Notes: generated by a model from the sequence alone, not told the origin. Shown: positions 2,599-36,771, counted from the stretch's first letter. The stretch: DNA of 36,771 bases from an uncultured Acidimicrobiales bacterium (GCA_937942965.1 CALDGN010000315.1:1-36771); one strand, 5' to 3'. Program-made: numbers and translations.

Positions 2599-2697
2599 GA
2601 CGTAAGCCTACGGGTGAGGTTCCGATCGTTGTAAGGGCCATCCTGCTCATGTTGGGGGACACCAAATGGCTTCCCCAGCCCAGTATCGTCGGGCCCT

Positions 2698-14544: not shown

Positions 14545-14711
14545 GAGGCGAAGGGGTCGGGGACGGAGCGGAGTAGGTCCGGTGCGCAGGCACCGTTCGT
14601 AACGGAACGGTAATCCTTTCGTTCGCGGAATGTTACGCGCCCCTGGAGATTTCCTAGGCCGGGTGGCACCGACCCGACATGCCTACCTGAAACAGGGCTA
14701 CGGTTCGGGTC

Positions 14712-14909
14712 GTGGAGCCTGTGGAGCTGACCGGCGCCGGTGATGATCGGCTCAATCCCCCGAGTGTCACGCCTGAGCCCGCGCCCCCAGACGACCAGCT
14801 CGTCAAGCTCGCGGCCGTCGGATCCGTGATCGGAGCCATCTTCGGATTGCTCGTGCTGCAATGGCTTCGACGCAACATCAACGTGAGCGTCAGCCGACGG
14901 ACGAACTAA
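14712..14909 (+). CDS. Possible small single-pass membrane protein (65 aa)
   Basis: One hydrophobic helix (LAAVGSVIGAIFGLLVLQWL) followed by RRN. About three quarters of third codon positions are G/C. TACGGT (14699-14704) plus 7 nt precedes the GTG start, a leaderless geometry. Confidence 0.45.
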   Translation: MEPVELTGAGDDRLNPPSVTPEPAPPDDQLVKLAAVGSVIGAIFGLLVLQWLRRNINVSVSRRTN

Positions 14910-18432: not shown

Positions 18433-18508
18433 AGCGGTTCCTTGTGGTGGGGCTTCGGCCAGGTACGGGACGACGGTGCGTTACCGCCGGCGGCTTTCCA
18501 GCGGACTG

Positions 18509-20938
18509 TTACCAACGGACTGGGCCGAGGTCGAGGATCTGTCGGTCGGTGGCGGATGCGGAAAGGTCACGCTTGGTTGGCTCCAACGGGAACGCAACCG
18601 GCGTGGGGTCAAGCTTGCTGTGGTCTTCGTCGGTCGACATGAGGACCCAAAGGTTCTCGGCCGAGCCGATGTAGGCGGCGCGGAGCGGCTTGTCGTCACG
18701 CAGCTTGTGTAAGCGCACACCCCCCGTGCCGCGGCCCTTGACCGGGATCTCGTCGAACGGCGTCGCCTTGGCTTCGGCGACAGGGGAGACCGAGATGATC
18801 ACGCCGTCCCAGACCTCGGGGTCGACCGGGCCAGCTGCGGTGATCTTGGCGCCGTCTTTGAGCTTCATGCCGGCTACGCCAGCAGCACCGCGGCCTTGGA
18901 CGCTGATGGCGTCGACGCTGGTGCGCAGTGCGTTGGCGTTGTCGGCGACCATGATGATGTCGGCGCCGTCAGGGCACGCGAACGCAGCGGCCAGGTCGTC
19001 GCCATCTTTGAGACGCATGACGGTGCTGCCGCTACGAGTCCCTTCGAGCTCTTCGATCGTCAGGCGCTTGGCGACACCGTTGCGGGTGACGAGCACCAGG
19101 TGACCGTTGATCGGGCCAGACACGATCGTGAGCGCTCGCTCGCCCTTGTTCATGCCGAAGAGCTGGTCAGCGGGCACGCCCCGGGTGCGTCCGGCGACAT
19201 CGCCCACGTCGTGTACGAGCGCAGAGAGCCCGCGCCCCTCAGAGGTGATGGCCCACACCTGTGCCGTCGTCGAGGTCTCGACCTGGGTCACGACGAGATC
19301 GTGGCGGCCAGGCTTGTTGCGCTTGGCGCCTTCGAGTGCTTCGCGGCCAATCTGGCCCGAGGTCGTGAGCGACACGAGGCAGGCCTCGTCGGTGACTTCG
19401 GCGGGCTGCGAAATATCGCCAGGGGAGAAGGTCTCGAGGTCGCCGACGTTGACGATCTCGCTGCGACGGGGCCGGCCGTATTCTTCGACGAGTTCGTCGA
19501 GTTCGGTCATAACGAGCTTGCGTTGACGGGTCTCGCTGGCCAGCAACTTCTCGTAATCATCGATCGTCGACAGCAGCTGGTCGCGCTCGTCGATGAGCTT
19601 CTGCATCTCGAGGCCAACGAGGCGCCGGAACTGCATGTCGAGAATGTGGGTGGCTTGGATCTCGCTCAGGCTGAGCTCGTCGCACAGCTTCTGGCGAGCT
19701 TCGGGAACCGTCTCGGAGTTCCGGATGATCGAGATGACCTGATCGATGTTGTCGAGGGCAATCAGCAAGCCCTGGACGACGTGCAGCCGTGCCTGAGCCC
19801 GCTCAAGGCGGTACTGGGTACGCCGGATGATGACATCGAGACGGTGGTCGATGTAGTGCTTGCACAGGTCGTACAGCGGCAAGGTGGTCGGCACGCCATT
19901 GACGAGCGCAACGTTGTTCACCGAGAAGGTGTCCTCGAGCGGCGTCATCCGGTACAGCTGGGCCAGCACGGCTTGTGGGTTGACGCCGACCTGGCAATCG
20001 ATCTGCAAGCGCAGGCCGAGGGTGCGGTCGCTCAGGTTGGTGATCGCGGCGACGCCCTCGAGTTTCTCGGCTTCGAGGAGCGCGTTGACCCGGGCGACGA
20101 CCTTTTCGGGGCCGACGAGATAGGGGAGCTCGGTGATGATGATGCCCTGGCGCTTCGGCGTGAGCTGCTCGATGTGAGCACGAGCCCGGACCGTGACCGA
20201 ACCCTTGCCGGTGGCGTACATCTCGGCCAGGCCGTCATCGACGATGATGGCGCCGGTCGGGAAGTCGGGGCCCGGCACTGCAGCGAGCAGTTCGTGCACG
20301 GTCGGCTTGGGCCGACGCTGGGTCAACACGATGCGGATGGCCTCGGCAACCTCGGCGAGATTGTGGGGTGCCATCGAGGTCGCCATGCCGACGGCAATAC
20401 CGCTCGTGCCGTTGACGAGCAGGTTTGGCAACAAGCCAGGAAGGCACTCGGGCTCGGTGCCCTCGCCGTCATAGGTCGGGCGCCACTCGACGGTGTTCTC
20501 GTCGAGCTCGTCGAGCATCGACATCGCGGCCTGCGAGAGTCGACACTCGGTATAACGGTGGGCCGCAGGCGGTTCGTCGAGGCTGCCGAAGTTGCCCTGC
20601 GGGTCGATCAGCGTGACGTTCTTGGCAAAGTCCTGGCCCATGCGCACGAGGGCGTCATAGATCGCCGAGTCGCCGTGCGGATGGAAGTTGCCCATGGTGT
20701 CGCCAACAACACGGGCGCACTTGCGGTGCGGTCCATCAGGGCGAATGCCCATGTTGAGCATGGAGTAGAGAATGCGTCGTTGGACGGGTTTGAGACCGTC
20801 TCGGACGTCGGGAATTGCCCGGCTCGTGATGACCGACAGCGAGTACGCGAGAAACGACTCCGACATCTCGTCGGCGACGGAAACATCAATGACTTCGCGA
20901 GCGAAGTCAGGAGCCAGCGGCAGCTGATCCTGAGGCAT
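18509..20938 (-). CDS. parC: Type IIA DNA topoisomerase subunit A, topo IV (ParC)-like, no canonical GyrA box
   Basis: DGLKPVQRRILY, HPHGD and catalytic Tyr in AAHRYTECRL. The C-terminal beta-pinwheel has GRGxxGV blades. Where GyrA carries QRRGGKG, the sequence reads AKRNKPGRH. TGcCATACT (20953-20945, minus strand) plus 6 nt precedes ATG 20938. Confidence 0.88.
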   Translation of the reverse strand: MPQDQLPLAPDFAREVIDVSVADEMSESFLAYSLSVITSRAIPDVRDGLKPVQRRILYSMLNMGIRPDGPHRKCARVVGDTMGNFHPHGDSAIYDALVRMGQDFAKNVTLIDPQGNFGSLDEPPAAHRYTECRLSQAAMSMLDELDENTVEWRPTYDGEGTEPECLPGLLPNLLVNGTSGIAVGMATSMAPHNLAEVAEAIRIVLTQRRPKPTVHELLAAVPGPDFPTGAIIVDDGLAEMYATGKGSVTVRARAHIEQLTPKRQGIIITELPYLVGPEKVVARVNALLEAEKLEGVAAITNLSDRTLGLRLQIDCQVGVNPQAVLAQLYRMTPLEDTFSVNNVALVNGVPTTLPLYDLCKHYIDHRLDVIIRRTQYRLERAQARLHVVQGLLIALDNIDQVISIIRNSETVPEARQKLCDELSLSEIQATHILDMQFRRLVGLEMQKLIDERDQLLSTIDDYEKLLASETRQRKLVMTELDELVEEYGRPRRSEIVNVGDLETFSPGDISQPAEVTDEACLVSLTTSGQIGREALEGAKRNKPGRHDLVVTQVETSTTAQVWAITSEGRGLSALVHDVGDVAGRTRGVPADQLFGMNKGERALTIVSGPINGHLVLVTRNGVAKRLTIEELEGTRSGSTVMRLKDGDDLAAAFACPDGADIIMVADNANALRTSVDAISVQGRGAAGVAGMKLKDGAKITAAGPVDPEVWDGVIISVSPVAEAKATPFDEIPVKGRGTGGVRLHKLRDDKPLRAAYIGSAENLWVLMSTDEDHSKLDPTPVAFPLEPTKRDLSASATDRQILDLGPVRW

Positions 20939-21052
20939 GTGTCGAGTATGGCATCGGCCTACGACAGCCCCGCGGCACTGCGGCGGGACTCCCCAAATCT
21001 CTCCACGGCCCTGCGTGCAACAAAGCCCCGATCGGGCCTGCTTGGGCGAGGA

Positions 21053-24200: not shown

Positions 24201-24268
24201 ACACCGGCCAGGGTAGGGGTCCGGCGTCAGAGTGGGGTGGCGCAACCTACCGAGATGTCGATACGGCC

Positions 24269-24293
24269 CATCTGGGTACAGATCATCTGGGTA
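24269..24293. promoter_or_regulatory. Direct repeat CATCTGGGTA-N5-CATCTGGGTA with embedded palindrome CAGATcATCTG
   Basis: Two exact 10-mers at 24269-24278 and 24284-24293. They lie about 66-90 nt upstream of the predicted galU transcription start and just downstream of the plsY stop. Confidence 0.3.
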
Positions 24294-24314
24294 GAGCCCA
24301 TGCGGCGGGTGCGG

Positions 24315-24905
24315 TTAGCTCTCGCCGATCGTTGTGCCTGCCGAGCGCTCATCGAGCATGCCGCGAATGTTGGTGCGATGCCGGGCGATGATGATCGCGC
24401 CGACCGCGGCAACGGCGATTGATTCGGTGGCGGGGCGCCCGATGAGGATCGTGCCGATGATGACGGTCGGAACGCCGACCATGGCGCCCAGGAACGAACG
24501 GCCCGACAAGGTGGCGCTGCCGAGCCATGCCGCCAATCCGAATGGGATCAGGATCGGCCACGACGCAATCGTCAGCCCTCCGAAACAGGCGACGCCCTTG
24601 CCGCCTCGGCTCTCACGCAGGATCGGGTACATGTGGCCGAGGACCGCAGCGCAACCGCAAAGCACACCGAAGGTGGTGTCTTCGACGCCGCGTCCGAGCA
24701 GCGTCGGGCCGATGGCTTTGAGCATGTCGAACACGAGCGTGGCGATGCCAGCGCGCTTGCCCGCAATGCGAAACATATTGGTGGCCCCAGGGTTACCGGA
24801 GCCTTCCTCGATGGGATCGTGGCCCACAATGCGGCCGATCAGCAGGGCTGAAGGAAACGTTCCGAGGAGGAAGGACGCCGGCAACAGGAGCCAAACGAAA
24901 TCCAC
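24315..24905 (-). CDS. plsY: Glycerol-3-phosphate acyltransferase (acyl-phosphate dependent)
   Basis: 196-aa multi-pass membrane protein with the GSGNPGATN signature and KGVA motif. GTG start. Confidence 0.92.
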   Translation of the reverse strand: MDFVWLLLPASFLLGTFPSALLIGRIVGHDPIEEGSGNPGATNMFRIAGKRAGIATLVFDMLKAIGPTLLGRGVEDTTFGVLCGCAAVLGHMYPILRESRGGKGVACFGGLTIASWPILIPFGLAAWLGSATLSGRSFLGAMVGVPTVIIGTILIGRPATESIAVAAVGAIIIARHRTNIRGMLDERSAGTTIGES

Positions 24906-24928
24906 GGTCGGTAGTCTGGCAGCTCGCT

Positions 24929-25285
24929 ATGCCGACGTACGACTATCACTGTGACACGTGTGGGCTCGACTTCGAGCTCGAACAAGCTTTTTCCGAAGAC
25001 ACGCTGACGAAATGCCCGACCAAGAAGTCCGGGCGCAGCCCTGAGGGATGCGCCAAGAGCGGCCGGGGTTCGGTCACCAAGGTCTTCTCCGCCCCGGGCA
25101 TCACGTTCAAGGGGACGGGCTTCTACAAAAACGACAGCCGCGGCTCGTCAAGCTCAACGACGAGTTCCAGTTCGAGCTCAACGACGAGCTCGGGCTCGGA
25201 CTCATCGAGCAGCAGCAGCTCGTCTGACTCGTCGAGCAGCTCGGGGTCATCTTCGAGTTCGTCTTCAAGCTCTTCGTCGGACTGA
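24929..25285 (+). CDS. FmdB-family zinc-ribbon protein with poly-Ser C-terminal tail (Ruc/Rv0991c-like)
   Basis: MPTYDYHCDTCG..FE..Q.F.......CP...C...V.KVFS......KG.GFY..D, followed by about 45 residues that are almost all Ser/Thr/Asp/Gly. Confidence 0.88.
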   Translation: MPTYDYHCDTCGLDFELEQAFSEDTLTKCPTKKSGRSPEGCAKSGRGSVTKVFSAPGITFKGTGFYKNDSRGSSSSTTSSSSSSTTSSGSDSSSSSSSSDSSSSSGSSSSSSSSSSSD

Positions 25286-25350
25286 GTCCGACCGCGGGCC
25301 ATGCCCGCATCCAACCAGCTTCCCCCTGATGTTCGATCAAGGAGAAGCTC

Positions 25351-26037
25351 ATGCTCTCGATGCAGACCCGGCCTCGAAGCGACGCGCCTGCGGCGTCGCT
25401 GCCAGTGGAGTCCACGCCGAGACGAAAGCGACGGCGGGCACTGCGGGTCATCTGGACGCCCTCGTTGCTCCGGCGGATTGTGCGCCATCGCGGTGCTCGA
25501 ATCGTGGCCTGTCTCGTCGCTGCGCTGTTATCGCTTTCGGCGGTGGCAGGCGAACGGGCGGCGCTCCAGGCTGAACGCGAGTCCTGGGAAGCAACCGTGG
25601 TGGCTGTCGAGGTTGTCCGGTTCGTTCCGGCCGGTGGCGAGGTTGGTCGGGCGGTTCGCCTGGTCGAGCGGCCCGCTGCCGTCGTGCCTGATGGAGCGCT
25701 CGTGGCAATCCCGCTCGACGGTCTAGCTGCGGTTGATCTCGTGCCAGGCGAGCTGGTGCTCGCTCAACGGGTGCGCGATGCCGGGGAAGGTCAGCTCCCC
25801 GCTGGAACGGTGGCAATCACGATCGAACTCGATGGCGAGGCCGCGCTTGTTGCCCCTGGTGCGCTGGTCGACGTGTGGGCGACCGATGCCGCCAACTTCA
25901 GCTCACGGCGTGTCGTGCAGGCAGCGCTTGTGCTGCAACTCGACGACCGTGATCTGACGATCGCTATTCCTGAGGGCGCTGCCGGCACCGTCGCGGTCGC
26001 GTCGTTGCGTCCGCTGACCGTGACCGTCGTGCGCTGA
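25351..26037 (+). CDS. Membrane-anchored SAF/CpaB-like domain protein (tentative family call)
   Basis: AAGGAG (25339-25344) lies 6 nt before the ATG. Arg-rich N-terminus, one TM helix (IVACLVAALLSLSAVAG), then a beta-rich domain. Its position downstream of the fmdB-like gene matches other actinobacteria. Confidence 0.72.
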   Translation: MLSMQTRPRSDAPAASLPVESTPRRKRRRALRVIWTPSLLRRIVRHRGARIVACLVAALLSLSAVAGERAALQAERESWEATVVAVEVVRFVPAGGEVGRAVRLVERPAAVVPDGALVAIPLDGLAAVDLVPGELVLAQRVRDAGEGQLPAGTVAITIELDGEAALVAPGALVDVWATDAANFSSRRVVQAALVLQLDDRDLTIAIPEGAAGTVAVASLRPLTVTVVR

Positions 26038-26056
26038 ATCGGTTCTGGCAGAACCG

Positions 26057-27400
26057 CTATGCGCCACTCACGGTGACGTCGCCGACGACCAGCGACAGAC
26101 CCGCTGCGCTGCTGGGCAGCCAGTCGAGGTCGCCGCCAACTTCGATGACGTCGAGCAACATGCGCTGCAGTGTCGAACCAATGGTGAACTCACGGAGCGG
26201 TTCGGCAAGTTCGCCGTTGCGGATGCGCAAGCCGTCGGCGCCGGTCGAGAAGTCGCCACTCACCGGGTTCACACCCGAGTGCAGGCCTGACACGCCTTGG
26301 ATCAGCACACCGTCTTCGATGTCGGCGATCAGCTCAGCTTGTTCCCGGGTGCCGGGAGCGAGCGAGAGCGCAATAGTGCCGGCGCCTGGCGTCGACGTGA
26401 AGCCACGCACGGCATTGCCGGTCGACTCGGTGCCCAGGCGCCGGGCCGTGTAGCTGTTGTGCACGAACTTGTTGAGGCGGCCGCCCTCGATGAGGACGTT
26501 TCGGCGGGTCGCAAGACCTTCGCCATCAGCTTCGCCAGCGGTGAAGGCGTTCGGGTTGGTCGGATCGTCGACGAGCGTGAGCAGTTCGGAGCCGACGGTT
26601 TCGCCAAGGCGGTCGGCGAACAGCGAGCGGCCCTTGAGCACAGCCTCGCCGGACAAGGTGGCGCCGATGATGCCGATGAACTGGGCGGTCACCATTGGAT
26701 CGAGCACGACAGTGATGCGGCCGGTTTCGGGCTTGACGGCGCCGAGCAGCCGGGTCGAACGTTCGACGGCCATCTCGGCCGCCTTTTCCAAGTCCAACTC
26801 ACGTGGGTTGCGGCCAACGGCGTAGCCGAAGCCGATCTGGGTTTCTTCGTCGCCGCCGGCAATGACGGTCGAGGTGACGTAGCTGCCGGCGTCGCGTCCG
26901 CCGATACGGATGCCGCTGGTCGTGACGACCGCGGCTTCACTGATCGAGTCGGCGAAGTCAGCTGATTCGACGAGCACGACTCGTGGATCGCCGGCCTTGG
27001 TCATCTTCTCGAGTTTGAGCGCCAGCGCGATCTTGTCGTCGGTCGGAAAGTCAGCGACGGCCTGGTCGTAGAGATCCAGCTCGGCCATTGGCACGCCGTC
27101 AGGCTCAGCGAGCTTGAGGTCGGGGTCGACCGAACCGAAGGTCGCGTTGTCACGAGCTTCGGCGAGGGTCGAGTCGATGACGTCGGGGTCCAACGTGCCA
27201 GCCCAGGCGAATCCCTGGCGCTGGTTGTTGATGACCCGGATGCCGATGCCTTGCGAAGTCGCCGAGGTGAACGACTCGACGTCACCCTCGAAGACACGGA
27301 CCTCGGTCTCGCGTTCGTTGACGACGATGGCTTCGAGTTGTTCGCCGTCCTTGGCGCGGCCGACGATCCGGTCGCCAAGTTCCAGAAGTTCGTCGAGCAT
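26057..27400 (-). CDS. pmbA: PmbA/TldE-family protein (non-catalytic partner of TldD)
   Basis: 447-aa ORF with the family C-terminal GxHSGVNPVSGDFS region. No HExxxH motif. Its start overlaps the tldD stop (TGATG at 27398-27402). Confidence 0.9.
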   Translation of the reverse strand: MLDELLELGDRIVGRAKDGEQLEAIVVNERETEVRVFEGDVESFTSATSQGIGIRVINNQRQGFAWAGTLDPDVIDSTLAEARDNATFGSVDPDLKLAEPDGVPMAELDLYDQAVADFPTDDKIALALKLEKMTKAGDPRVVLVESADFADSISEAAVVTTSGIRIGGRDAGSYVTSTVIAGGDEETQIGFGYAVGRNPRELDLEKAAEMAVERSTRLLGAVKPETGRITVVLDPMVTAQFIGIIGATLSGEAVLKGRSLFADRLGETVGSELLTLVDDPTNPNAFTAGEADGEGLATRRNVLIEGGRLNKFVHNSYTARRLGTESTGNAVRGFTSTPGAGTIALSLAPGTREQAELIADIEDGVLIQGVSGLHSGVNPVSGDFSTGADGLRIRNGELAEPLREFTIGSTLQRMLLDVIEVGGDLDWLPSSAAGLSLVVGDVTVSGA

Positions 27401-28791
27401 CAGGCTGCGGTGCCGCCGACGGTAAGGGCGGGGACTCGAAGGGTGGGCGTACCGTCGCCAACGGGAACGCCTTGGCCATCTTTGCCGCAGGTGCCGGGGG
27501 CGCCCATCTCGAAGTCGTTGCCGAGAGCATCGATGCTGGTGAGGACCTCGGGGCCGTTGCCGATGAGGTTGCCTTCGCGGATCGGTTCGGTGATCTCGCC
27601 GTTCTCGATCAGGTACGCCTCGGTCATGCCGAAGACGAAATCGCCGCTGACGGTGTTGACCTGCCCGCCGCCGAGCTGGGCGACATAGATGCCCGAATCG
27701 GTGTCGGCGATGATGTCTTCGGGATCGGTTTCACCATTGGCGATGTAGGTGTTCGTCATGCGAACCATCGGTAGGTACTTGTAGCTCTGGCGGCGACCAT
27801 TGCCGCTGCTGGGGCGACCCTCGGCACGAGCACGCAGCTCGTCCCACATGAAGTCGAGCAAGATGCCGTCTTCGATGAGCACGTTGCGCTGGGCGGGCTT
27901 GCCTTCGTCGTCGATGGCGTACGCGCCCCACTCGTGCGGCATGGTGCCATCGTCGATGACGGTGACGAGCGGGCTGGCGACGAGTTCGCCGACACGGCCG
28001 GCGAAGACCGTTGCCTGCTTGGCGACGTGGTCGGCTTCGAGACCATGGCCGCAAGCTTCGTGGAACAGCACGCCGCCGCCACCCTTACCGATGACCGTGG
28101 TGACGGCCCCCGATGGTGCAGGACGGGCGCCGAGCTTGGTGATGGCACGATTCGCGGCCTTGACGGCAAGATCGGTCACGTCGTACTGGTCGAAGAGTTC
28201 GAAGCCCATCGTGTGGCCGATCGACTCGCGGCCGGTCTGCATGCCGGTGTCACCGAGGGCAACACACGAAACGGAGAAACGGGTCTTGACCTGGTCGTCG
28301 CCCGTCAGCAGACCATCGCTGTTGGCGATCTGGATGCGACGACGCACGTCGCCGTAGCCGACCGAGACCTGTGCGATCGAGTCGCCGACCTGGCGGGCGG
28401 CGTCGTTCGCGAGTTCGAGCAGTTCGACCTTGCGCTGCTTGGCGACGGTCTCGGGCATGACCTTGACGGGGCTCGGCGAATCGACGTGCTGCGACGACAG
28501 ATCAACGGTGCGAACACCGCCGTTGCCGTCGCGTGCAGCATCAGCAGCAGCGGTCGCAGCCTGGAGCAGGCCGCGCTCGGTGAGGTCTGCGGTGTGGGCG
28601 AATCCGGTTGATTCTCCAACGATGACTCGGATGCCCGCGCCCCGGCTTCGCCCCGAGGACAGTTCCTCGATTCGGTTGTCGTCGAGCAGTGCTCCAGAGG
28701 ACTGTCGGTCCTCGACAAAGATCTCGGCGAATTTGCCGCCGCGGGCAGTTGCCGCAGCCAGCGTGTTTTCGAGGGTGCCCTGATCGATCAT
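27400..28791 (-). CDS. tldD: TldD-family metalloprotease
   Basis: 463-aa ORF with HEACGHGLEADH (HExxxH) and GG.VN..SGDFVF. A strong SD, GAGGAGGA, lies upstream of ATG 28791. Confidence 0.92.
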   Translation of the reverse strand: MIDQGTLENTLAAATARGGKFAEIFVEDRQSSGALLDDNRIEELSSGRSRGAGIRVIVGESTGFAHTADLTERGLLQAATAAADAARDGNGGVRTVDLSSQHVDSPSPVKVMPETVAKQRKVELLELANDAARQVGDSIAQVSVGYGDVRRRIQIANSDGLLTGDDQVKTRFSVSCVALGDTGMQTGRESIGHTMGFELFDQYDVTDLAVKAANRAITKLGARPAPSGAVTTVIGKGGGGVLFHEACGHGLEADHVAKQATVFAGRVGELVASPLVTVIDDGTMPHEWGAYAIDDEGKPAQRNVLIEDGILLDFMWDELRARAEGRPSSGNGRRQSYKYLPMVRMTNTYIANGETDPEDIIADTDSGIYVAQLGGGQVNTVSGDFVFGMTEAYLIENGEITEPIREGNLIGNGPEVLTSIDALGNDFEMGAPGTCGKDGQGVPVGDGTPTLRVPALTVGGTAA

Positions 28792-28860
28792 CGTCCTCCT
28801 CGGCCGTCAATAAGGACGGCGGACGGTTCTGCCGCGACGGTCGTCGTAGCACGGCGAGGT

Positions 28861-29313
28861 GTGCCGTATGGTACCCAGGTGCCGATCGAACCGGGAGTCC
28901 AGGCGCGGACCGTCCATCTTGTGGACGAAGCGGACACCGCCGTCGCAATGGGGACTGGCGAAGTACCCGTCTTGGCTACGTCGCGCCTGGTCGCATGGAG
29001 CGAGCAGACGTCGCTCGAAGCCATGGGAGACCAGGTCCCCGAAGGCTCGACCACGGTCGCAATGCGTGTGCACCTGGATCACCTCAAGGCCGCTTCGGTT
29101 GGCTGTCAGGTCACGACGATCGCCACGTTGGAACGCATCGAAGGACGTCGCTACATCTTTGTCGTCACGAACCTTGACACGGGTAACGAAGTTCTCGCAC
29201 AAGGTCGGATCGTGCGCGTCATTGTTGAGACTGCGCCGTTCTTGGACTCTGCCTGCCAGGGAAGCCCCGCCGGCCTCGCCGATGGCGGGTCCTCCAGTGA
29301 TGTGGGCGCCTGA
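28861..29313 (+). CDS. Hot-dog fold thioesterase, FlK (fluoroacetyl-CoA thioesterase)-like family
   Basis: VLATSRLVAWSEQ...EGSTTVAMRVHLDHLKAA..G..V...A.LERIEGRR parallels FlK VFATGFMVGLMEW...GTAICVTHTAA...VEGRR. The positions equivalent to the Thr, Glu and His are conserved. GTG start. Confidence 0.75.
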   Translation: MPYGTQVPIEPGVQARTVHLVDEADTAVAMGTGEVPVLATSRLVAWSEQTSLEAMGDQVPEGSTTVAMRVHLDHLKAASVGCQVTTIATLERIEGRRYIFVVTNLDTGNEVLAQGRIVRVIVETAPFLDSACQGSPAGLADGGSSSDVGA

Positions 29314-29343
29314 GGTTCGGCGCACCATGACGAGTATCTGGCC

Positions 29344-30339
29344 ATGACGCCGAAATCAGCGCTGATTCTTCTGCTGCGCATCGGCGTCAGCGTCGGTCTC
29401 TTGGTGTTCCTCTTTGTCACCGTCGATATCGATTTCGATGAGCTGTGGCCCGACGACGGGCAAGCAGTGATGTGGCTGGTCATCGCATTCGGCTGCATGG
29501 TCGGTTCGCTCGTGCTGGCGTCCTTCCGCTGGCAACAGGTCTGTCGGGCGCTGGGTCTTTCGATCCCCACAGTGCGCCTCTTCTGGCACACGATCGCTGG
29601 CCAGTTCCTCTCGAACTTCGTGCCCACGACCGTCGGCGGCGACGTCTTGCGCGTGAGTCGCCTCGGCAAAGAGACCGGCGACCGACCCACCAGCTTCACC
29701 ACGGTGATCCTGGAACGGCTCAGCGGCTGGATGGTGTTGCCCGCCTCGATCTTCGTCGGATTGGCGTCGGACCCTGCATTGCGGGCCCTGGGAGCGGCCA
29801 CTCGCGGTGCCATGGTCGCCGCGATCGTCACCCTTGTGGCGCTGATGCTCATCATCATCGCCGCAGGCAACGACCTGACCGGCCGGCTGCTCGAACGCTA
29901 TGAGGGCCCGCTGGCGTGGCTCCACGCCGTCCACGAGGGCCTCGACGTCTTGCGAGCTCGCCCTCGCCAGATCATCCGCATCCTCGCAACCGGTGCCGCC
30001 TATCAGGGCATGTTGATCATCGCCTTCTGGGCCGCGGCGCAATCGATCGGCATCGAAGGCTTCGGCGTTCGAGCCGCAGCCGCATTCGTGCCCGCCGTCC
30101 TCATCGTGCAGGTGCTTCCGCTCGGCATCGGCGGCCTCGGCGTTCGCGAAGGAGCGCTGGTGCTTTTCCTCGGCAGCCTCGATGTGCCCGACGAACAGGC
30201 CGTGGCGCTCGGGCTCACGATCTATGCGCTGACGATCCTGATGTCACTGCTTGGGCTTCCGTCGCTCGTCTTTGGCGGCGGTTTGGGCGACGACGAAGAC
30301 GACGACTCGCTTCCCGTCGACGCCCCGACCGGGAGTTAA
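29344..30339 (+). CDS. UPF0104 / lysyl-phosphatidylglycerol-synthase-TM (MprF flippase-like) domain membrane protein
   Basis: 331-aa multi-pass membrane protein. Contains R.Q....LG......F......G.F.N...P...GGD..R, typical of the family. No C-terminal synthase domain. Confidence 0.83.
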   Translation: MTPKSALILLLRIGVSVGLLVFLFVTVDIDFDELWPDDGQAVMWLVIAFGCMVGSLVLASFRWQQVCRALGLSIPTVRLFWHTIAGQFLSNFVPTTVGGDVLRVSRLGKETGDRPTSFTTVILERLSGWMVLPASIFVGLASDPALRALGAATRGAMVAAIVTLVALMLIIIAAGNDLTGRLLERYEGPLAWLHAVHEGLDVLRARPRQIIRILATGAAYQGMLIIAFWAAAQSIGIEGFGVRAAAAFVPAVLIVQVLPLGIGGLGVREGALVLFLGSLDVPDEQAVALGLTIYALTILMSLLGLPSLVFGGGLGDDEDDDSLPVDAPTGS

Positions 30340-30343
30340 CCGG

Positions 30344-31198
30344 GTGCCTGTTCGGCTCCCGTTCCAGCTTCCTCCGGTCGTCAAGGAGGCAGTCCTGATC
30401 GGCGGCGTCTATGTGGCGTACTCGTTCGTGCGGAACGAGTTCGGCTCGGCTGCTGTCGAACCAGCGGCCGCGGCCCGTAATGCCGACCGCATCATCGACA
30501 TCGAGCGGGCGATGGGGCTCTACATCGAAGCCGACGTGCAAGAGGCGTTCATCGACTGGACCGCATTCATCCAGTTCTGGAACTTGTTCTACGGGGTCTT
30601 TCACTTCTTGGTGACGTTTGTCTGCCTGATCTGGATGTACCGAAGCCACAACGACCGCTATCGGTTCTGGCGCCGGGCAGGCCTGATCGGCACGTCGACG
30701 GCGCTGCTCGGTTACGCCGTGTTCCCACTCATGCCGCCCCGGTTGCTCGGCGACTGTGGCCTCTACGGCGCCTGCCGCAGCGACAGTCCCTACATCGACA
30801 CCGTCAATGACATCGGCGGCATCTGGTCGTTTGAGCAGTCGGGAATGGAAGCGATCTCGAACCAGTACGCCGCCATGCCGAGCCTGCACATTGGCTGGGC
30901 GCTGTGGTGTGCCCTGCTGCTCGTCCCGAGACTGCGAACACCATGGGCCAAGGGAATCGCGGCTGCGTATCCGCTCCTCACCCTGTTCGCGATCGTGGTG
31001 ACCGCGAACCACTACTGGATCGATGGCCTGGGCGGCGTAGCCGTGATCGCGTTCGGTTGGGCGGTGAGCACCGCATGGGAACGGTGGTGGATTGCACCGA
31101 GACAGGAGCGCCTTGGGGAGAAATCCCCACAGGATTCGGGCCCGCTCGAATCGGGCGGACGAGAAATCGGCAGTAGCGTGTCGGTTGGTGATGCTTAG
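30344..31198 (+). CDS. PAP2-superfamily, Aur1/IPC-synthase-like (PAP2_3-type) membrane phosphotransferase
   Basis: Multi-pass membrane protein with AMPSLHIGW (SxH) and TANHYWIDG (HxxxD) motifs. A GTG start at 30344, 4 nt after the preceding stop, is preferred; the longer ORF from 30251 overlaps the upstream gene. Confidence 0.8.
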   Translation: MPVRLPFQLPPVVKEAVLIGGVYVAYSFVRNEFGSAAVEPAAAARNADRIIDIERAMGLYIEADVQEAFIDWTAFIQFWNLFYGVFHFLVTFVCLIWMYRSHNDRYRFWRRAGLIGTSTALLGYAVFPLMPPRLLGDCGLYGACRSDSPYIDTVNDIGGIWSFEQSGMEAISNQYAAMPSLHIGWALWCALLLVPRLRTPWAKGIAAAYPLLTLFAIVVTANHYWIDGLGGVAVIAFGWAVSTAWERWWIAPRQERLGEKSPQDSGPLESGGREIGSSVSVGDA

Positions 31199-33047
31199 TA
31201 GCGCCATGCAGCCCGCCGACCTTCGTCGGCTCTCCTCGGCTCAGCTCGAAGAGCTGTGCGCAGACCTGCGCGAGGCGATTCTCGACGCGGTCGGGATTCA
31301 GGGCGGGCACCTCGGCTCCAACCTCGGCATCGTTGAGCTCACCGTCGCGCTGCATCGGGTGTTTGATTCGCCCCACGACGTGCTGCTGTTCGACACGGGC
31401 CACCAGGCGTATGCCCACAAGATGCTCACGGGCCGTCTCGACGACTTCGCCACACTGCGTACGACCGACGGCCTGTCTGGCTATCCGTCGCAGGGCGAGA
31501 GCGAACACGACTGGATCGAGAACAGCCACGCCTCGACGGCGCTGAGTTATGCGCACGGTCTCGCCACGGCGTTCAGCAAGAACGCCGGCAACACTCGCAA
31601 GGTCGTCGCCGTTGTCGGCGATGGTTCGATGACCGGTGGCATGGCCTTCGAAGGCCTCAACAACCTCGGACACGCCGACGCCAACGTCACGATCGTGCTG
31701 AACGACAATGGCCGTTCCTACGCCCCAACGGTCTCTCGCTTGGGTGACTCGCTCGCTCGGCTACGGGTGAACCCGACGTTCGTCCGGTCGCAGAGCCGCA
31801 TGGAGAAGCTGATCGGTGACGTGCCGCTCGTTGGCCGCGAGGTCGAGCGTGCGCTCGACGCCGCCAAGGCAGCCGTGCGCGAGATGTGGGAGCCGACCTC
31901 GTTCTTCGAGAACCTCGGCGTTCGCTACACCGGACCGTTCGACGGCCACGACATCGACGGGCTTGAGCACGCACTTCGCAACGCCGCTGAAATCGACGGC
32001 CCGGTCGTCGTGCACGTACGCACCGACAAGGGCCGTGGCTATGCGCCGGCCGAGAACGACCCCGTCAAGAAGATGCACGACACGGGCCCGTTCAAGGTCG
32101 AGCCCAAGCCCGGCGCTGCCGATGATCCTCCTCGCGGCAAGTTCACCGCCGCGTTCGCCGAAGCGATCGTCAAGGTCGGCGAACGTGTGCCCGAAGTCGT
32201 CGCGCTGACTGCCGCAATGCCTGACTCGACCGGACTGCTCCCGTTCGCAAATCGGTTCCCGGATCGTGCCTACGACGTCGGCATCGCCGAACAACATGCC
32301 GTGACGATGGCAGCCGGTATGGCCATGGGTGGCCTGCGCCCGATCGTGGCGATCTACTCCAGCTTCCTGACCCGGGCGATCGACCAAATCAACCTCGACG
32401 TCGGCCTGCACCGGCTACCGGTCATCTTCGCGGTCGACCGTGCCGGTGTGACTGGCCCCGATGGGCCCTCAGCGCACGGCGTGCTCGACATGGTGCTGCT
32501 CTCCAAGGTGCCGGGCATGACCATGCTGGCACCGTCGTCGTACGAAGAAGTCGGCCTCATGCTCGACGAGGCGCTTGAGATCACCGATGGTCCGGTCGCG
32601 ATCCGCTGGCCTCGCACCAGCGCCCGAATGGTGAGCGAAGCCGAAATCGGCACCGGGCTGCGTGCTCGCAAGGTGCAGTCGGGAGAGCGAGTCTGCTTGC
32701 TCGCCGTCGGCAAAATGGTCGAAGCCGCTGAGCTCGCCGCCGCAATCCTGGCTGCGGACGATGTCACTGCGACTGTCTACGACGTGCGCTGCGTCAAGCC
32801 GCTCGATCCCGACATGCTGGCTGACGCTGGATCCCACGACATCGTCGTCACAGTCGAAGACGGCCTTGCTGCTGGCGGCGTCGGCTCGTGGATCGCTCAT
32901 GAGCTCGCCGAGGCCGAGTCGCCGCCCCGAGTGCGAGTCATGGGCTTGCCCGACACCTACATCCGCCACGGCGATCCTGACGAGCTCCTCGCCGAGCTCG
33001 GCCTCGACGCCGCCGGCATCGCCACCGAAGTCCGTCGCTGGCTCTAA
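31191..33047 (+). CDS. dxs: 1-deoxy-D-xylulose-5-phosphate synthase
   Basis: GGHLGSNLG.VELT.ALH, D.GHQ.Y.HK.LTGR, the TPP motif GDGSMTGGMAFEGLNN, and a transketolase-like C-terminal half. Start is ATG 31191 (8-nt overlap with the PAP2 gene) or ATG 31206. Confidence 0.93.
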   Translation: MLSSAMQPADLRRLSSAQLEELCADLREAILDAVGIQGGHLGSNLGIVELTVALHRVFDSPHDVLLFDTGHQAYAHKMLTGRLDDFATLRTTDGLSGYPSQGESEHDWIENSHASTALSYAHGLATAFSKNAGNTRKVVAVVGDGSMTGGMAFEGLNNLGHADANVTIVLNDNGRSYAPTVSRLGDSLARLRVNPTFVRSQSRMEKLIGDVPLVGREVERALDAAKAAVREMWEPTSFFENLGVRYTGPFDGHDIDGLEHALRNAAEIDGPVVVHVRTDKGRGYAPAENDPVKKMHDTGPFKVEPKPGAADDPPRGKFTAAFAEAIVKVGERVPEVVALTAAMPDSTGLLPFANRFPDRAYDVGIAEQHAVTMAAGMAMGGLRPIVAIYSSFLTRAIDQINLDVGLHRLPVIFAVDRAGVTGPDGPSAHGVLDMVLLSKVPGMTMLAPSSYEEVGLMLDEALEITDGPVAIRWPRTSARMVSEAEIGTGLRARKVQSGERVCLLAVGKMVEAAELAAAILAADDVTATVYDVRCVKPLDPDMLADAGSHDIVVTVEDGLAAGGVGSWIAHELAEAESPPRVRVMGLPDTYIRHGDPDELLAELGLDAAGIATEVRRWL

Positions 33048-33814
33048 CGATCGAGCGACGCTCCGTCGGGGTCATTTGGGTCGACGGTTTCGTTCGGAAA
33101 TTCGAAGTCTGGCAGTGACTCGACGGCCGAGGTGAGTGCTTGGCTCCAGCCCCGCGAAATGGACTGGAAGTAGGGGTCGTCCTGTTCGATGCGCATGGAC
33201 CGAGGAGCCTTGAGTGAGTCCTTCTCGTACACGTTGACATCGAGGGGCATACCGACCGACAGGTTTGCTCGCATCGTCGAGTCGAAGGACACGAGTAGAA
33301 GCTTGATCGCTGCCTCGAACGACAGCGATGGGTCGAATGCTCGAACGAGGATCGGTTTGCCGTATTTGGCTTCGCCGATCTGCAAGAACGGTGTGTCAGC
33401 GCCGGCCTCGATGAAGTTGCCTTCGGGATAGATGAGGAACAGCCGAGGCGGCATCTCGCCGATCTGTCCGCCGAGAATGAGCGTGGCCTCGAACGCTGAG
33501 GCTTGTTCCCCGTGGTTGGCCACCGCGCCCTTCAGCGTCTGGCCAACGAGCTGTGCGACCTGAAACATCGTCGGTGCTTCGAGGATCGACGGGCTGCGGT
33601 CAGCAAGGCGTTGGGTGCGATCGTCGAGCAGCCCGACAGCGATCTGCGTGGTTGCGAGGTTGCCAGCGCTCAGCAGCGTGATGCTGCGATCACCCGGCTT
33701 CGTCCAGGTGTGCATCTTGCGGTAGCGAGAAATGTTGTCGATACCTGAATTGGTCCGTGTGTCAGAGATGAAGACAAGGCCACGGTCCATCAGTAAGCCA
33801 ACGCAGTAGGTCAC
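33044..33814 (-). CDS. Anbu (ancestral beta-subunit) proteasome-like Ntn-hydrolase peptidase
   Basis: GTG start, then TYCVGLL..GLVF.SDTRTN.G.D.IS..RKMH. The Thr directly after the initiator and the Asp and Lys at the proteasome-beta-equivalent positions are present. The gene is last in the ATP-grasp / alpha-E / transglutaminase operon. Confidence 0.87.
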   Translation of the reverse strand: MTYCVGLLMDRGLVFISDTRTNSGIDNISRYRKMHTWTKPGDRSITLLSAGNLATTQIAVGLLDDRTQRLADRSPSILEAPTMFQVAQLVGQTLKGAVANHGEQASAFEATLILGGQIGEMPPRLFLIYPEGNFIEAGADTPFLQIGEAKYGKPILVRAFDPSLSFEAAIKLLLVSFDSTMRANLSVGMPLDVNVYEKDSLKAPRSMRIEQDDPYFQSISRGWSQALTSAVESLPDFEFPNETVDPNDPDGASLDR

Positions 33815-33853
33815 GGCAGCGAACGATACTCAGCTCGCTGCACTGCGGTGTGA

Positions 33854-34678
33854 TCACTGCTGGACTTGGAGCGAGACGCTCAGATGCTCGGCTCCGTCAC
33901 CGACACGCACGCCACGGATCGGCGCTGCATCTCGATAGTCAAGACCGGTTGCGATGCGGACATAGCGCTCGTCAGGAGAGATTCCGTTCGAGATGTCGAA
34001 CCCGACCCAGCCCAGGCCTTCGACCCAGGTTTCGGCCCACGCATGGGTTGCGTCCTGTGAAATGCGGTCGTCCATCATCAGGTAGCCGCTGACGTAGCGA
34101 GCGGGTGCGTCGAGGACTCTGCACGCAGTCACGAAGATCTGTGCATGGTCTTGGCAGACGCCTGCGCCACGGGCCAGCGCTTCTTCGACCGCGATGCCCG
34201 ACGTGGTGGCCCCGACCTCGTAGGCGACGACGTCTCGAATCCGGGCTGAGAGGGCATGCAGATTCTCGATCGAGAGTGCTTCGTCGACGAACGGAGCAAC
34301 GAGTGCCTGAACCTGGTCTCCCGGATCGGTGAGTGCGGTCTCGCGTCGGTAGAGCCACAGCGGCGCCAGGCCTTGATGTTGCGCGACCACGCCGATCGTT
34401 CCATGGGTCTCGACTTCGCCAACCGCAGTGACGGCCACATGTGTCGCACCGGGATCGACCCGAAACAGCTCGACATGGTTCTGATGTTCGTCGGTGTAGG
34501 ACAGTTCGGCGGCTCCGCCGCTCATCTCGGTCGTCCAGCCGAACACAGTCTGGCCAGGGGTCGTTGGCGGTGTGAGCCGCACTTGCTGGAGCGCGGACAC
34601 GACAGGCGAGTCGTAGGTGTAGTGGGTCACGTGTTCGATCCTGAGTCTCACGTGCACACCGCTTCGAACCGGGAACAT
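33854..34678 (-). CDS. Transglutaminase-like cysteine protease-fold protein (Bact_transglu_N + transglutaminase core)
   Basis: N-terminal RLRIEHVTHYTY...V..L.L.P. Catalytic triad context GAGVCQDHAQIF, THAWAE, GFDISNG. Alternative GTG starts at 34657 and 34651. Confidence 0.87.
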   Translation of the reverse strand: MFPVRSGVHVRLRIEHVTHYTYDSPVVSALQQVRLTPPTTPGQTVFGWTTEMSGGAAELSYTDEHQNHVELFRVDPGATHVAVTAVGEVETHGTIGVVAQHQGLAPLWLYRRETALTDPGDQVQALVAPFVDEALSIENLHALSARIRDVVAYEVGATTSGIAVEEALARGAGVCQDHAQIFVTACRVLDAPARYVSGYLMMDDRISQDATHAWAETWVEGLGWVGFDISNGISPDERYVRIATGLDYRDAAPIRGVRVGDGAEHLSVSLQVQQ

Positions 34679-34687
34679 TGCGACGAG

Positions 34688-35629
34688 TTAGACATCGAAG
34701 TGGTAGTCCTGCTGGATCTGCGTGGCGATGCCGTTTGCGTCAATGATGGCTTGCTGCAAGAACTCGTGGAGCCCAGCGTCGAAGACATGTTCGATGGTCG
34801 TCGACTCGAAGCGCTCGACCATCTCGTCGGCCAGCTCTGCCGAGCGTGTGGCGAACTGATACTCACGATTGAGATGGTCGACGTTCGCGGCGATCTTGCC
34901 GATGCAGAAGCGCAGCGATCGGGGCATCTGATCGTCGAAGAGCACGAAGTCGGCAATCCCTGCTGGGTTGATCTCACCGTCGGCGTGGGAGCGATAGGCC
35001 CGCCGAGCCGACACGGCTCGCAAGATGGTTTCCCACTGCACCGTGTCGAGGCGAGACCCGACCTGGCTGACGGATGGCAGGAGCAGGTAGTACTTGACGT
35101 CGAGGATCCGGGCCGTGTTATCCGCCCGTTCGATAAGCGTGCCGAGTCGAGCGAAGTTGAAGCTGTCGTTGCGGGTCATCGTGCCGTGCATCGCTCCTCG
35201 GACATAGGCGCTCTCGCGCTTGATTGCCCGAAGCGCATTCGGCAAGTCGGTTGGATCAATGGGCGCCTTGAGCAGATCCGTGAGGGTCATCCAGCACTCG
35301 TTGGTGGCTTCCCACGTCTCTCTTGTCAGAGCAGTGCGAATACCGCGGGCGTTTTCTCTGGCCACGTTGACGCAGGAACGGACACTCAGCGGGTTCGACT
35401 CTTCGCGAAGCAGAAAGTCGATGACAGCTTCGCTAGAGAACTGCTCGTGGAGGCCGAGAAAGTTCTGAGTCGAGCTGGCCGTGCTGACAACGGACTTCCA
35501 CTCTTGAGTCGCGCCCTCGGACCTCGTCAAGGCGATGTGGAGGCCGGCTTCGACGAGTCGGGCAGTGTTTTCGGTGCGTTCGAGGTTCCGAAACATCCAG
35601 AACAGTCGGCGGGCGGTCGTTCCCAGCAT
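34688..35629 (-). CDS. Alpha-E domain protein
   Basis: MLGTTARRLFWMFRNLERTENTARLVE matches the characteristic alpha-E N-terminus. ATG 35629 overlaps the stop of the upstream ATP-grasp gene (TGATG at 35627-35631). Confidence 0.87.
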   Translation of the reverse strand: MLGTTARRLFWMFRNLERTENTARLVEAGLHIALTRSEGATQEWKSVVSTASSTQNFLGLHEQFSSEAVIDFLLREESNPLSVRSCVNVARENARGIRTALTRETWEATNECWMTLTDLLKAPIDPTDLPNALRAIKRESAYVRGAMHGTMTRNDSFNFARLGTLIERADNTARILDVKYYLLLPSVSQVGSRLDTVQWETILRAVSARRAYRSHADGEINPAGIADFVLFDDQMPRSLRFCIGKIAANVDHLNREYQFATRSAELADEMVERFESTTIEHVFDAGLHEFLQQAIIDANGIATQIQQDYHFDV

Positions 35630-36771
35630 CAGGCTTGAAGAACCCATGTGTCTTTGGTGCCGCCGCCCTGGCTCGAGTTCACGACGAGGGATCCTTCTTC
35701 AAGGGCAACTCGAGTGAGGCCACCGGGGGTGATGCGTATGTTGTCGGGCGACACCAGCACGAACGGGCGCAAGTCGACATGGCGAGGAGCGAGACCGGCC
35801 TCGGTCAAGATCGGCACGGTGGAGAGCGCCAGCGTGGGTTGGGCGATGTAGCAGTCGGGGTTGGCCCGAAGCTTGGCCTCGAAATCGGTCAGCTCAGCTT
35901 TGCTGGCTGCGGGCCCGACGAGCATGCCGTAGCCGCCTGACCCGTGCACCTCTTTCACCACGAGCTCACTGAGGTGGTCGAGCACGTAGGCGAGAGCGTC
36001 AGGTTCGACGCAGCGCCAGGTCGGAACGTTCTTCAGGATGGCCGGCTCGCCCATGTAGAAGTCGATGATTTCTGGCATGTATGAGTAGATCGCCTTGTCA
36101 TCGGACACACCAGTGCCAGGCGCATTCGCGATGGTCACGTTGCCAGCCCGGTACACGTCCATGATTCCGGGAACGCCGAGCATTGACGATGGGTCGAACG
36201 TGAGGGGATCCAAGTAGGCGTCGTCGATGCGCCGGTAGAGAACGTCGACGACTTCACGTCCGCGTGTGGTCCGCATCGTGACGTGACCGTCCACCACCTG
36301 GAGATCCTGACCTGACACGAGTTCTACGCCCATCTCATCGGCGAGGAACGAGTGCTCGAAGAACGCAGAGTTGTAGGCGCCGGGAGTCAGCACCGCGATC
36401 GTCGGGTTGCCGTCACAGGAAGCCGGCGTACATGCCGCCAACGATCGTCGAAGGTGGCGGGGATAGTCGTTGATGGTGCGAACCTGTGTCCGCGAGAACA
36501 GCTCGGGGAACATGTGGAGCATCGTCTCGCGGTTCTCAAGCATGTAGCTCACGCCTGACGGTGTGCGAGCGTTGTCCTCGAGCACGTAGAACTCGTCTTC
36601 GCCCGTGCGAACGAGGTCGATGCCCACGATGTGGGTGTAGACGCCACCGGGCGGTTCGACACCGATCATGTGCTGGAGGAACGCCTCGTTGCGCAGGATC
36701 AGCTCGACCGGCAAGCGCCCCGCACGGATGATCTCTTGTCGGTGGTACAGGTCGTGCAGGAACGCGTTGAT
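35629..36771 (-). CDS. Circularly permuted ATP-grasp (type 2) amidoligase, 5'-truncated by the window edge
   Basis: The reading frame stays open to nt 36771 (INAFLHDLYHRQEIIRAGRLPVELILRNEAFL...). The rest (YVLEDNARTPSGVSYMLENR, GSGGYGMLVGP...) fits the family that precedes alpha-E genes. Confidence 0.87.
   Translation of the reverse strand: MNAFLHDLYHRQEIIRAGRLPVELILRNEAFLQHMIGVEPPGGVYTHIVGIDLVRTGEDEFYVLEDNARTPSGVSYMLENRETMLHMFPELFSRTQVRTINDYPRHLRRSLAACTPASCDGNPTIAVLTPGAYNSAFFEHSFLADEMGVELVSGQDLQVVDGHVTMRTTRGREVVDVLYRRIDDAYLDPLTFDPSSMLGVPGIMDVYRAGNVTIANAPGTGVSDDKAIYSYMPEIIDFYMGEPAILKNVPTWRCVEPDALAYVLDHLSELVVKEVHGSGGYGMLVGPAASKAELTDFEAKLRANPDCYIAQPTLALSTVPILTEAGLAPRHVDLRPFVLVSPDNIRITPGGLTRVALEEGSLVVNSSQGGGTKDTWVLQA

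Follow-up and report, generated by a model that had tools for sequence, protein, structure and literature searches.

Described Anbu operons and the Acidimicrobiales locus

In proteobacteria such as Pseudomonas aeruginosa, Pseudomonas putida, Yersinia bercovieri and Hyphomicrobium sp. MC1, the proteasome-type protease Anbu is encoded within a compact operon that also specifies an ATP-grasp protein, an alpha-E protein and a transglutaminase-like protein. The operon COG2308-COG2307-COG1305-Anbu goes back to Valas & Bourne, who defined it in 2008 (PMC3235984); according to PMC5666114 and PMC6376114 it was analysed by Iyer et al. in 2009, and structures of Anbu were solved in 2017-2018. The present comparison draws on Valas & Bourne 2008, Fuchs 2017 (PMC5666114), Piasecka 2018 (PMC6376114) and Vielberg 2018, and also on PMC8665760. 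Various sets drawn from 20S proteasomes, HslV and Anbu are found in genomes (Valas & Bourne, PMC3235984), and actinobacteria are among the hosts of the Anbu-1 subtype (Fuchs et al., PMC5666114). The subject of this report is a four-gene Anbu cassette at the end of a 36,771-nucleotide stretch of DNA from an uncultured Acidimicrobiales bacterium (GCA_937942965.1 CALDGN010000315.1:1-36771; the whole stretch is referred to as the window), which is very probably an Anbu-1 operon of canonical form, intact and functional, on the chromosome of a member of the Actinomycetota.

A preliminary description of the window had proposed four co-directional genes on the minus strand and had traced their order to Valas & Bourne and to Iyer/Aravind. 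The coordinates were confirmed by a scan of open reading frames (ORFs), and the attribution is right. The features are as follows:

33044-36771, minus strand: Anbu cassette, four tightly packed genes (ORF scan with Pfam and PDB matches)
35629..36771, minus strand: circularly permuted type-2 ATP-grasp gene (COG2308), 3' part only (CP_ATPgrasp_2 2.8e-152; PDB 3n6x 3.3e-157)
35627..35631, minus strand: TGATG junction of the ATP-grasp stop and the alpha-E start (read from the sequence)
34688..35629, minus strand: alpha-E gene (COG2307, DUF403), 313 amino acids (Pfam Alpha-E 2.3e-85)
33854..34651, minus strand: gene for a transglutaminase-like Cys-His-Asp protein (COG1305), 265 amino acids from its most likely start (Bact_transglu_N 1e-17, Transglut_core 4e-20)
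33044..33814, minus strand: gene for Anbu (proteasome-type protease, COG3484), assigned to the Anbu-1 subtype, 256 amino acids (PDB 5loy 8.3e-83)
33047..33100, minus strand: Anbu C-terminal tail, residues 239-256, FPNETVDPNDPDGASLDR (acidic extension past the end of the solved Anbu chains)

The proteobacterial operon agrees with the window in its four families, their order and their tight packing, its Anbu being likewise of the Anbu-1 subtype with Thr1/Asp17/Lys32, an equivalent S1 pocket, no propeptide and no adjacent AAA+ ATPase. The window differs from it in its host, an uncultured member of the Acidimicrobiales, in the 18-residue acidic C-terminal tail of its Anbu, and in lacking the 5' end of the ATP-grasp gene; nor would its regulation run via sigma-54/NtrC as has been inferred for Pseudomonas. 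A three-gene module whose members are homologous to the first three genes, in the same order and with ATP-grasp proteins of 73-77% identity, is found in Rhizobium, Agrobacterium and Burkholderia; unlike the window, these loci have no adjacent Anbu, and two Burkholderia copies carry Ser in place of the catalytic Cys. We take Rv2411c-Rv2409c of Mycobacterium tuberculosis to be another such module without Anbu, and Rv2411c to be a homologue of the window's ATP-grasp protein.

Two better-known proteolytic systems are more distant. The Pup-proteasome (PafA/Dop, Pup, Mpa, PrcAB) is alike in outline only, in that the gene for an ATP-dependent carboxylate-amine ligase stands beside that for an N-terminal-threonine hydrolase of the proteasome family. 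Its ligase PafA is glutamine-synthetase-like whereas that of the window is an ATP-grasp protein, the window cassette has no Pup-like small gene, AAA+ unfoldase or alpha subunit, and Anbu forms an open split ring, not a closed 7-fold barrel (PMC8665760). Judged by its gene content, the cassette is not a member of the Pup-proteasome system, and no PrcA/PrcB, Pup, PafA/Dop or Mpa family was found with Pfam among the 26 other ORFs of the window. HslV, in the HslVU system, is also a homo-oligomeric homologue of proteasome beta subunits with a Thr1 nucleophile; the window cassette has no HslU-type ATPase, and Anbu differs in not being regulated by heat shock and in its additional C-terminal helix, H5 (PMC3235984, PMC8665760). 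The window operon is a routine instance of a known and widespread system, in a family of thousands of members, with no departure in its architecture, and all the comparisons of membership that could be run place it there.

Gene order, junctions and the four proteins

Conservation of the gene order was surveyed by scanning the ATP-grasp fragment against one genome per species, which yielded 80 loci (L001-L080) of many families, mostly from Alphaproteobacteria and with 73-79% identity; the order was then scored by tblastn with the four window proteins. ATP-grasp is followed by alpha-E in all 80 loci and by the transglutaminase-like gene in 79, the contig of the 80th (L065) ending inside alpha-E, and Anbu comes directly after in 63, which bears out the earlier recognition of this order as the conserved Anbu operon. 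About five of the 17 loci lacking Anbu are truncated where the contig ends, and the others belong to Rhizobium, Agrobacterium, Shinella, Burkholderia and a few more taxa. Since core loci exist without an adjacent Anbu, the three-gene core is more widespread than Anbu, as Valas & Bourne had already noted (PMC3235984). Flanking genes were compared in the 62 full-length loci, both as ORFs of at least 100 amino acids and as small ORFs of 25-110 amino acids: no flanking family that could be a conserved fifth partner is common to more than eight of these loci, and none of the small ORFs, the candidates for a Pup-like tag, recurs in more than six. The lack of a shared flanking family in the 62 loci implies that the cassette is self-contained. 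In two further loci, L083 (an Acidimicrobiales metagenome-assembled genome, GCA_033344915.1) and L084, the cassette is followed by a second gene of 274 amino acids with a Transglut_core domain only (L083 10731-11555, L084 2511-3335), which overlaps the 3' end of Anbu and precedes two large genes without a Pfam match; the window does not have this 'cassette plus one' variant.

The closest homologues of the window's Anbu (P0001, 89%) and alpha-E (P0241, 96%), in searches that returned at least 8000 candidates each, lie on the metagenome contigs L081, L082 and L085-L088, whose DNA is 90.5-91.7% identical to window positions 24268-36771; no identical sequence is on record for the window Anbu (beginning with either V or M) or for its alpha-E. 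These relatives help to define the junctions between the genes. The ATP-grasp TGA and the alpha-E ATG have one base (A) in common, within the TGATG at 35631-35627 to which the preliminary description had pointed, and the same 1-nucleotide overlap is called in L081 (2422/2422) and in L085-L088 (10001/10001); as read from the sequence, this is a junction of the translational-coupling type. A correction is called for at the second junction, where a spacer of only 9 nucleotides had been reported. The longest ORF for the transglutaminase-like protein starts at ATG 34678 and has 274 amino acids (33854-34678). That ATG is CCG in two relatives of 91% DNA identity (L081/L087), and the window's GTG 34651 aligns with the relatives' ATG, after which the protein continues M-R-L-(R/K)-I-E-H and the relatives' genes are called at 265 amino acids; the first position of the Pfam profile falls at residue 12 of the 274-residue form. 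Because of the CCG at the position of 34678 and the ATG aligned with 34651, the start is most likely GTG 34651, giving a protein of 265 amino acids, and it would follow that the spacer after alpha-E is 36 nucleotides and not the 9 that result from ATG 34678. The third junction had been given correctly, the transglutaminase-like stop TGA (33856-33854) being followed by 39 nucleotides and then by the Anbu GTG at 33814.

A scan of 32800-36771 detected neither a sigma-70-like promoter nor, on the minus strand, a terminator-like site between the genes; Rfam gave no match in the cassette or elsewhere in the window. There is no AAA+ ATPase in the cassette or among its window neighbours, and in the close relatives neither such an ATPase nor a proteasome gene is present within 10 kb. 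The spacing suggests that the four genes are cotranscribed as one unit.

Family assignments were made by profile searches (Pfam, NCBIfam) and by sequence search of the PDB, and residue conservation was read from alignments in which each window protein was set against the corresponding proteins of the loci (66 Anbu, 81 alpha-E and 80 transglutaminase-like sequences). The four families named in the preliminary description are borne out at E values well outside what chance would give, CP_ATPgrasp_2, Alpha-E and Bact_transglu_N/Transglut_core by their profiles and Anbu by PDB matches, and homologues carry the names 'proteasome-type protease' (Anbu) and 'alpha-E domain-containing protein' in NCBI and JGI.

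The window holds 380 codons of the ATP-grasp gene and its stop (35631-35629), with about 85-97 N-terminal residues beyond the window end; the complete protein is called at 465 amino acids in the approximately 91%-identical relatives L081/L082/L085-L088. Positions 23-374 of the 374 in the CP_ATPgrasp_2 profile (PF14403) are covered, the remaining ones falling past the window end, and window residues 1-379 match chain residues 98-473 of 474 in 3n6x, the sole solved homologue, a structural-genomics entry deposited as 'putative glutathionylspermidine synthase'. Over the shared part the protein is 98.9% identical to that of L081, and across phyla the alignment of the loci shows at least 98% invariance at 178 of the 380 positions. 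The ATP-grasp protein of the Y. bercovieri operon frees phosphate from ATP (PMC6376114).

The alpha-E protein matches the Alpha-E profile (PF04168) over positions 1-293 of 294, and its two ER motifs, E17-R18 and E167-R168, are invariant in 81 of 81 homologues. An AlphaFold2 model is all-helical, with 15 helices and no strands (predicted local distance difference test, pLDDT, 87; predicted template modelling score, pTM, 0.85). The PDB sequence search yielded no solved relative, and Foldseek, run with this model against the PDB, found no fold neighbour (best E value 0.11, template modelling score at most 0.26).

In the third protein the domains Bact_transglu_N (PF08379) and Transglut_core (PF01841) both score above their gathering cutoffs, and PDB 3isr ('transglutaminase-like enzymes, putative cysteine protease') matches at 6e-12. 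The CQDH, THAW and GFD contexts to which attention had been drawn are present and hold the triad C175/H212/D228 (numbering of the 274-residue form), which is kept in 78, 80 and 80 of 80 homologues, respectively. The two exceptions at the Cys, in Burkholderia lata and B. stagnalis (L071, L076), have Ser instead, are 36% identical to the window protein and lack an adjacent Anbu; they may represent a version of the third gene that has diverged or is inactive.

Residues 1-238 of the last protein match the solved Anbu structures 5loy, 5nyj (6.9e-71), 5nyf (2.6e-70), 5lox (2.2e-64) and 5nyw (1.3e-63), 5lox being the Anbu of P. aeruginosa and 5loy a consensus protein designed from the Anbu-1 cluster (PMC5666114). 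Identity to solved Anbu is about 60%. In the same PDB search, 20S beta subunits match at only about 1e-3 to 9e-3 and no HslV chain matches at E <= 0.01. The Pfam Proteasome profile scores 20.9 bits, below its cutoff of 22.4, and the NCBIfam proteasome matches are likewise weak; the identity of the protein is settled because the PDB matches are decisive where these profiles are weak or below threshold. The placement of 33044-33814 in the Ntn-hydrolase/proteasome fold, with Thr1 present, is supported both by the match to 5loy and by the invariance of this residue. The gene begins GTG-ACC (Met-Thr; MTYCVG...), as it does in close relatives. An in-frame stop lies five codons upstream with no start codon between, and Anbu therefore has no propeptide, an absence that is a described trait of the family (PMC5666114). 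The N-terminal Thr and the Asp and Lys at proteasome-beta-equivalent positions, both remarked upon in the preliminary description, are Thr2, Asp18 and Lys33 of the translated protein (mature Thr1/Asp17/Lys32); all three are invariant in 66 of 66 homologues, and the Asp and Lys align with those of 5loy and 5nyj. Piasecka et al. named Thr1, Asp17 and Lys32(33) as candidate catalytic residues of Anbu (PMC6376114), and in P. aeruginosa Anbu the start Met is removed in vivo and Thr1 reacts with epoxomicin and MG132 (PMC5666114).

The S1 pocket of Anbu-1 is amphiphilic and that of Anbu-2 is basic (I20-A29-R46-R50-T53; PMC5666114). In the window it reads T20-Y30-S48-L52-T55, against T20-F30-T48-L52-S55 in P. 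aeruginosa Anbu, with no Arg, and Tyr and Ser are common variants among homologues. By its S1 pocket and by its best PDB match, which is to the Anbu-1 consensus, the window protein is of the Anbu-1 subtype. The alignment, a comparison of sequence only, reaches the last residues of the solved chains (query 236-238 against chain 236-243 of 240-245).

The tail that follows is non-repetitive and acidic in the window (PNETVDPNDPDGASLDR). In close relatives (L081 4950-5046 and the equivalents in L086/L087) the Anbu tail carries 3-5 copies of a tandem repeat of 15 nucleotides, or five amino acids, NESG(S/P), whose number varies between samples, so that the tail is length-variable in this lineage. An apparent loss of Anbu in L085 and L088 was rejected, since a run of N, a scaffolding gap, falls inside the tail repeat. 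Public gene calls (JGI, Logan, ENA) begin the relatives' Anbu at Met9, giving proteins of 262 or 257 amino acids without the GTG start and the catalytic Thr1 (L081 4237-5049, L086 11816-12628, L087 11816-12613), and the cluster representative P0001, which has this mis-called start, has no Pfam match on record.

Host, genomic surroundings and selection

Adjacent GyrB-like and GyrA-like genes lie at 16387-21052 on the minus strand; the subunit B gene, whose nearest named relatives carry the annotation DNA topoisomerase IV subunit B and come from Acidimicrobiia metagenome-assembled genomes, served to assign the host. Because the named relatives of the topoisomerase IV-B-like protein are all from metagenome-assembled genomes of Acidimicrobiaceae, Acidimicrobiales, Acidimicrobiia or Actinomycetota (72-91% identity), the host is placed in the Acidimicrobiales, which agrees with the Actinomycetota-like genome suspected at the outset. 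The remaining window is ordinary chromosome, without tRNAs. Next to the cassette, dxs (31092-33047, plus strand; DXP_synthase_N 7.6e-102) is convergent with Anbu: the Anbu stop TAG (33046-33044, minus strand) overlaps the dxs stop by two bases, and the two ORFs share four (33044-33047). This leaves zero intergenic room for a terminator, and the Anbu and dxs transcripts would each run antisense into the other gene; the same overlap is called in L081, L082, L086 and L087, where Anbu is annotated. Tandem genes for TldD/PmbA-family metallopeptidases lie about 4 kb from the cassette (26057-28806, minus strand), a position kept in L081-L088; other taxa gave no sign of a link between TldD/PmbA and the cassette. 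The neighbours shared with the relatives comprise dxs, PAP2_3, LPG_synthase_TM, the TldD/PmbA pair and PlsY, on at least six independent metagenome contigs.

Three stretches of the window are less easily annotated. Three long, mutually overlapping ORFs of high GC content at third codon positions (GC3) lie on both strands at 2635-5359, and only that on the plus strand at 3326-5359 has a Pfam match (PQQ/beta-propeller); at 13200-14900 and 25000-26050 no ORF passed the GC3 filter, which was set at GC3 >= 0.72.

It had been suggested that an extended contig would reveal both the N-terminus of the ATP-grasp protein and the promoter. In the approximately 91%-identical relatives the N-terminus is indeed seen, together with an upstream spacer of about 300 nucleotides that is preceded by a DAO-family dehydrogenase gene, but that spacer contains no consensus promoter, nor was a terminator or an Rfam family detected in it.

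Ratios of nonsynonymous to synonymous substitution rates (dN/dS), computed against L081 at dS 0.28-0.41, are 0.017 for ATP-grasp, 0.056 for alpha-E, 0.114 for the transglutaminase-like gene and 0.077 for Anbu, with 0.026 for the neighbouring dxs, while protein identity to L081 drops along the operon from 98.9 through 95.8 and 90.5 to 89.3%. From dN/dS values of 0.017-0.11 it follows that all four genes are kept by strong purifying selection. These values bear directly on the idea of a passenger cassette, in decay or newly transferred, that plays no role in this host. The GC content of the cassette (0.60-0.62) is slightly under the window mean of about 0.65, its flanking genes vary between taxa, and its ATP-grasp stands nearer to copies in Alphaproteobacteria (up to 79%) than to those of one Acidimicrobiales metagenome-assembled genome and one labelled Mycobacteriaceae (75%), all of which would suit a passenger. 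Such a reading is nevertheless extremely improbable, given four intact reading frames with these dN/dS values at dS of about 0.3-0.4, the synteny with dxs, PAP2 and TldD on the independent contigs mentioned above, and GC3 values of 0.74-0.79, inside the range of the remaining window, for three of the four cassette ORFs (the transglutaminase-like ORF failed the filter). The dN/dS values in effect dispose of this reading, and decay into pseudogenes is rejected on the same ground. With 121 Anbu sequences, a neighbour-joining tree places the window's metagenomic clade at the midpoint root and is uninformative on transfer; because of this, the 73-79% identity of the ATP-grasp protein to alphaproteobacterial copies, with the Acidimicrobiales and Mycobacteriaceae-labelled copies slightly below at 75%, could reflect either slow evolution of this protein or transfer between phyla.

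Possible roles of the module

ATP-grasp enzymes join a carboxylate to an amine via an acyl-phosphate. Together with the chemistry of the other families and with published work, rather than evidence from this locus, this allows a tentative reading of the operon as a make-and-break module, in which ligation by ATP-grasp and alpha-E would be followed by transfer or hydrolysis. The four genes would be made from one transcript; the ATP-grasp protein, with alpha-E, would activate a carboxylate at the cost of ATP, by way of an acyl-phosphate, and couple it with an amine, so that a peptide or protein acquires an amide or isopeptide bond; methionine aminopeptidase would expose Thr1 of Anbu; and Anbu and the transglutaminase-like thiol enzyme would transfer or hydrolyse amide bonds in the ATP-grasp product. 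The whole module may then serve peptide or protein turnover that is important under nutrient limitation, of nitrogen especially; in P. putida limited for nitrogen, no gene set is up-regulated more than this operon (note added in proof, PMC3235984).

A number of observations weigh against this proposal. Rhizobium, Agrobacterium and Burkholderia have the core without an adjacent Anbu, from which it follows that the job of the core does not require Anbu, and neither the sequence nor the fold search gave a functional clue from alpha-E. Gene spacing is the only ground for cotranscription; the promoter of the cassette falls beyond the window end, and none was recognized in the spacer of the relatives. 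Published work adds that the substrate of the ATP-grasp protein is not known, that no stable complex among the four operon proteins was detected, and that peptidase activity on standard substrates has been shown for no Anbu (PMC6376114, PMC5666114). Finally, induction by nitrogen limitation is known only from a proteobacterium with sigma-54/NtrC, and may not carry over to Actinomycetota. It has been stated that 'no function is known' (PMC8665760), and within the library searched no later literature assigning a function to the operon was found.

About equal in weight to the make-and-break module is a pathway for a small molecule or storage peptide, in which no protein is tagged: ATP-grasp and alpha-E would build a non-ribosomal peptide or an amide-linked metabolite, such as a gamma-glutamyl or polyamine conjugate and possibly a nitrogen store, from which the transglutaminase-like enzyme and Anbu would act as releasing amidases. 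The deposition of 3n6x as a putative glutathionylspermidine synthase points in this direction, and a universal small substrate would fit the extreme conservation of the ATP-grasp protein (178/380 positions, dN/dS 0.017). The lack of a conserved small ORF for a ribosomal tag beside the cassette, the many genomes that have the core without Anbu, and the induction of the operon under nitrogen limitation (PMC3235984) are also in its favour, as is the proposal of Iyer et al. 2009, which, as cited in PMC5666114, was of a peptide-synthesis system with Anbu as its peptidase. Less easily accommodated is Anbu, a multi-subunit open ring or helix with inward-facing active sites that binds proteasome inhibitors, features in which Fuchs et al. 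see an argument for protein degradation (PMC5666114). Moreover, no such metabolite has been identified, and Rv2411c, included in that study only as a negative candidate, did not make GABA-trehalose (GABA, gamma-aminobutyric acid; bioRxiv 10.64898/2026.04.15.718621), a result that excludes one product only.

The degradative role favoured by Fuchs et al. (PMC5666114) could also be exercised by Anbu alone, as an ATP-independent compartmentalising protease that removes damaged or surplus proteins in the manner of an uncapped 20S proteasome, with the other three genes on the same transcript but biochemically separate in their task. No binding of Anbu to the other operon proteins was found, and Anbu did not stimulate the ATP-grasp protein (PMC6376114), core and Anbu are separable in evolution, and the fall in identity to L081 from ATP-grasp to Anbu indicates that constraint on the operon is unequal. 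This view is rather unlikely all the same, since the fixed order, in which 63 of the 80 loci, from distant taxa, have Anbu directly after the core, and the tight spacing kept within the lineage are hard to explain without a functional link, and since proteolysis by Anbu has never been shown (PMC6376114).

A bolder elaboration, quite improbable and with nothing at the locus to support it specifically, is that the operon provides a second, Pup-independent route for marking and degrading proteins in an actinomycete that also has the Pup-proteasome. Target proteins would, in this joint reading, receive an amino acid or a short non-ribosomal peptide from ATP-grasp and alpha-E; transfer or trimming of that mark would fall to the transglutaminase-like enzyme, and Anbu would degrade the proteins so marked, with its lineage-specific, length-variable tail as a docking or gating element.

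The Anbu operon is widespread and strongly conserved, and structures have been solved for Anbu and for an ATP-grasp homologue, yet its substrate is not known. The window copy, with its canonical architecture and unrelated housekeeping neighbours, gives no new handle on that function, which is no more testable here than elsewhere because the organism is uncultured and the operon is cut by the window end. For annotation, it is useful that the transglutaminase-like start is most likely GTG 34651 and that the public calls for the closest relatives, beginning at Met9, leave out Thr1 of Anbu, a mis-annotation that could hide Anbu in high-GC genomes. For the biology of the family, the locus shows that a marine or environmental lineage of Acidimicrobiales keeps the whole operon under strong selection, and adds a further point to its distribution within the Actinomycetota.

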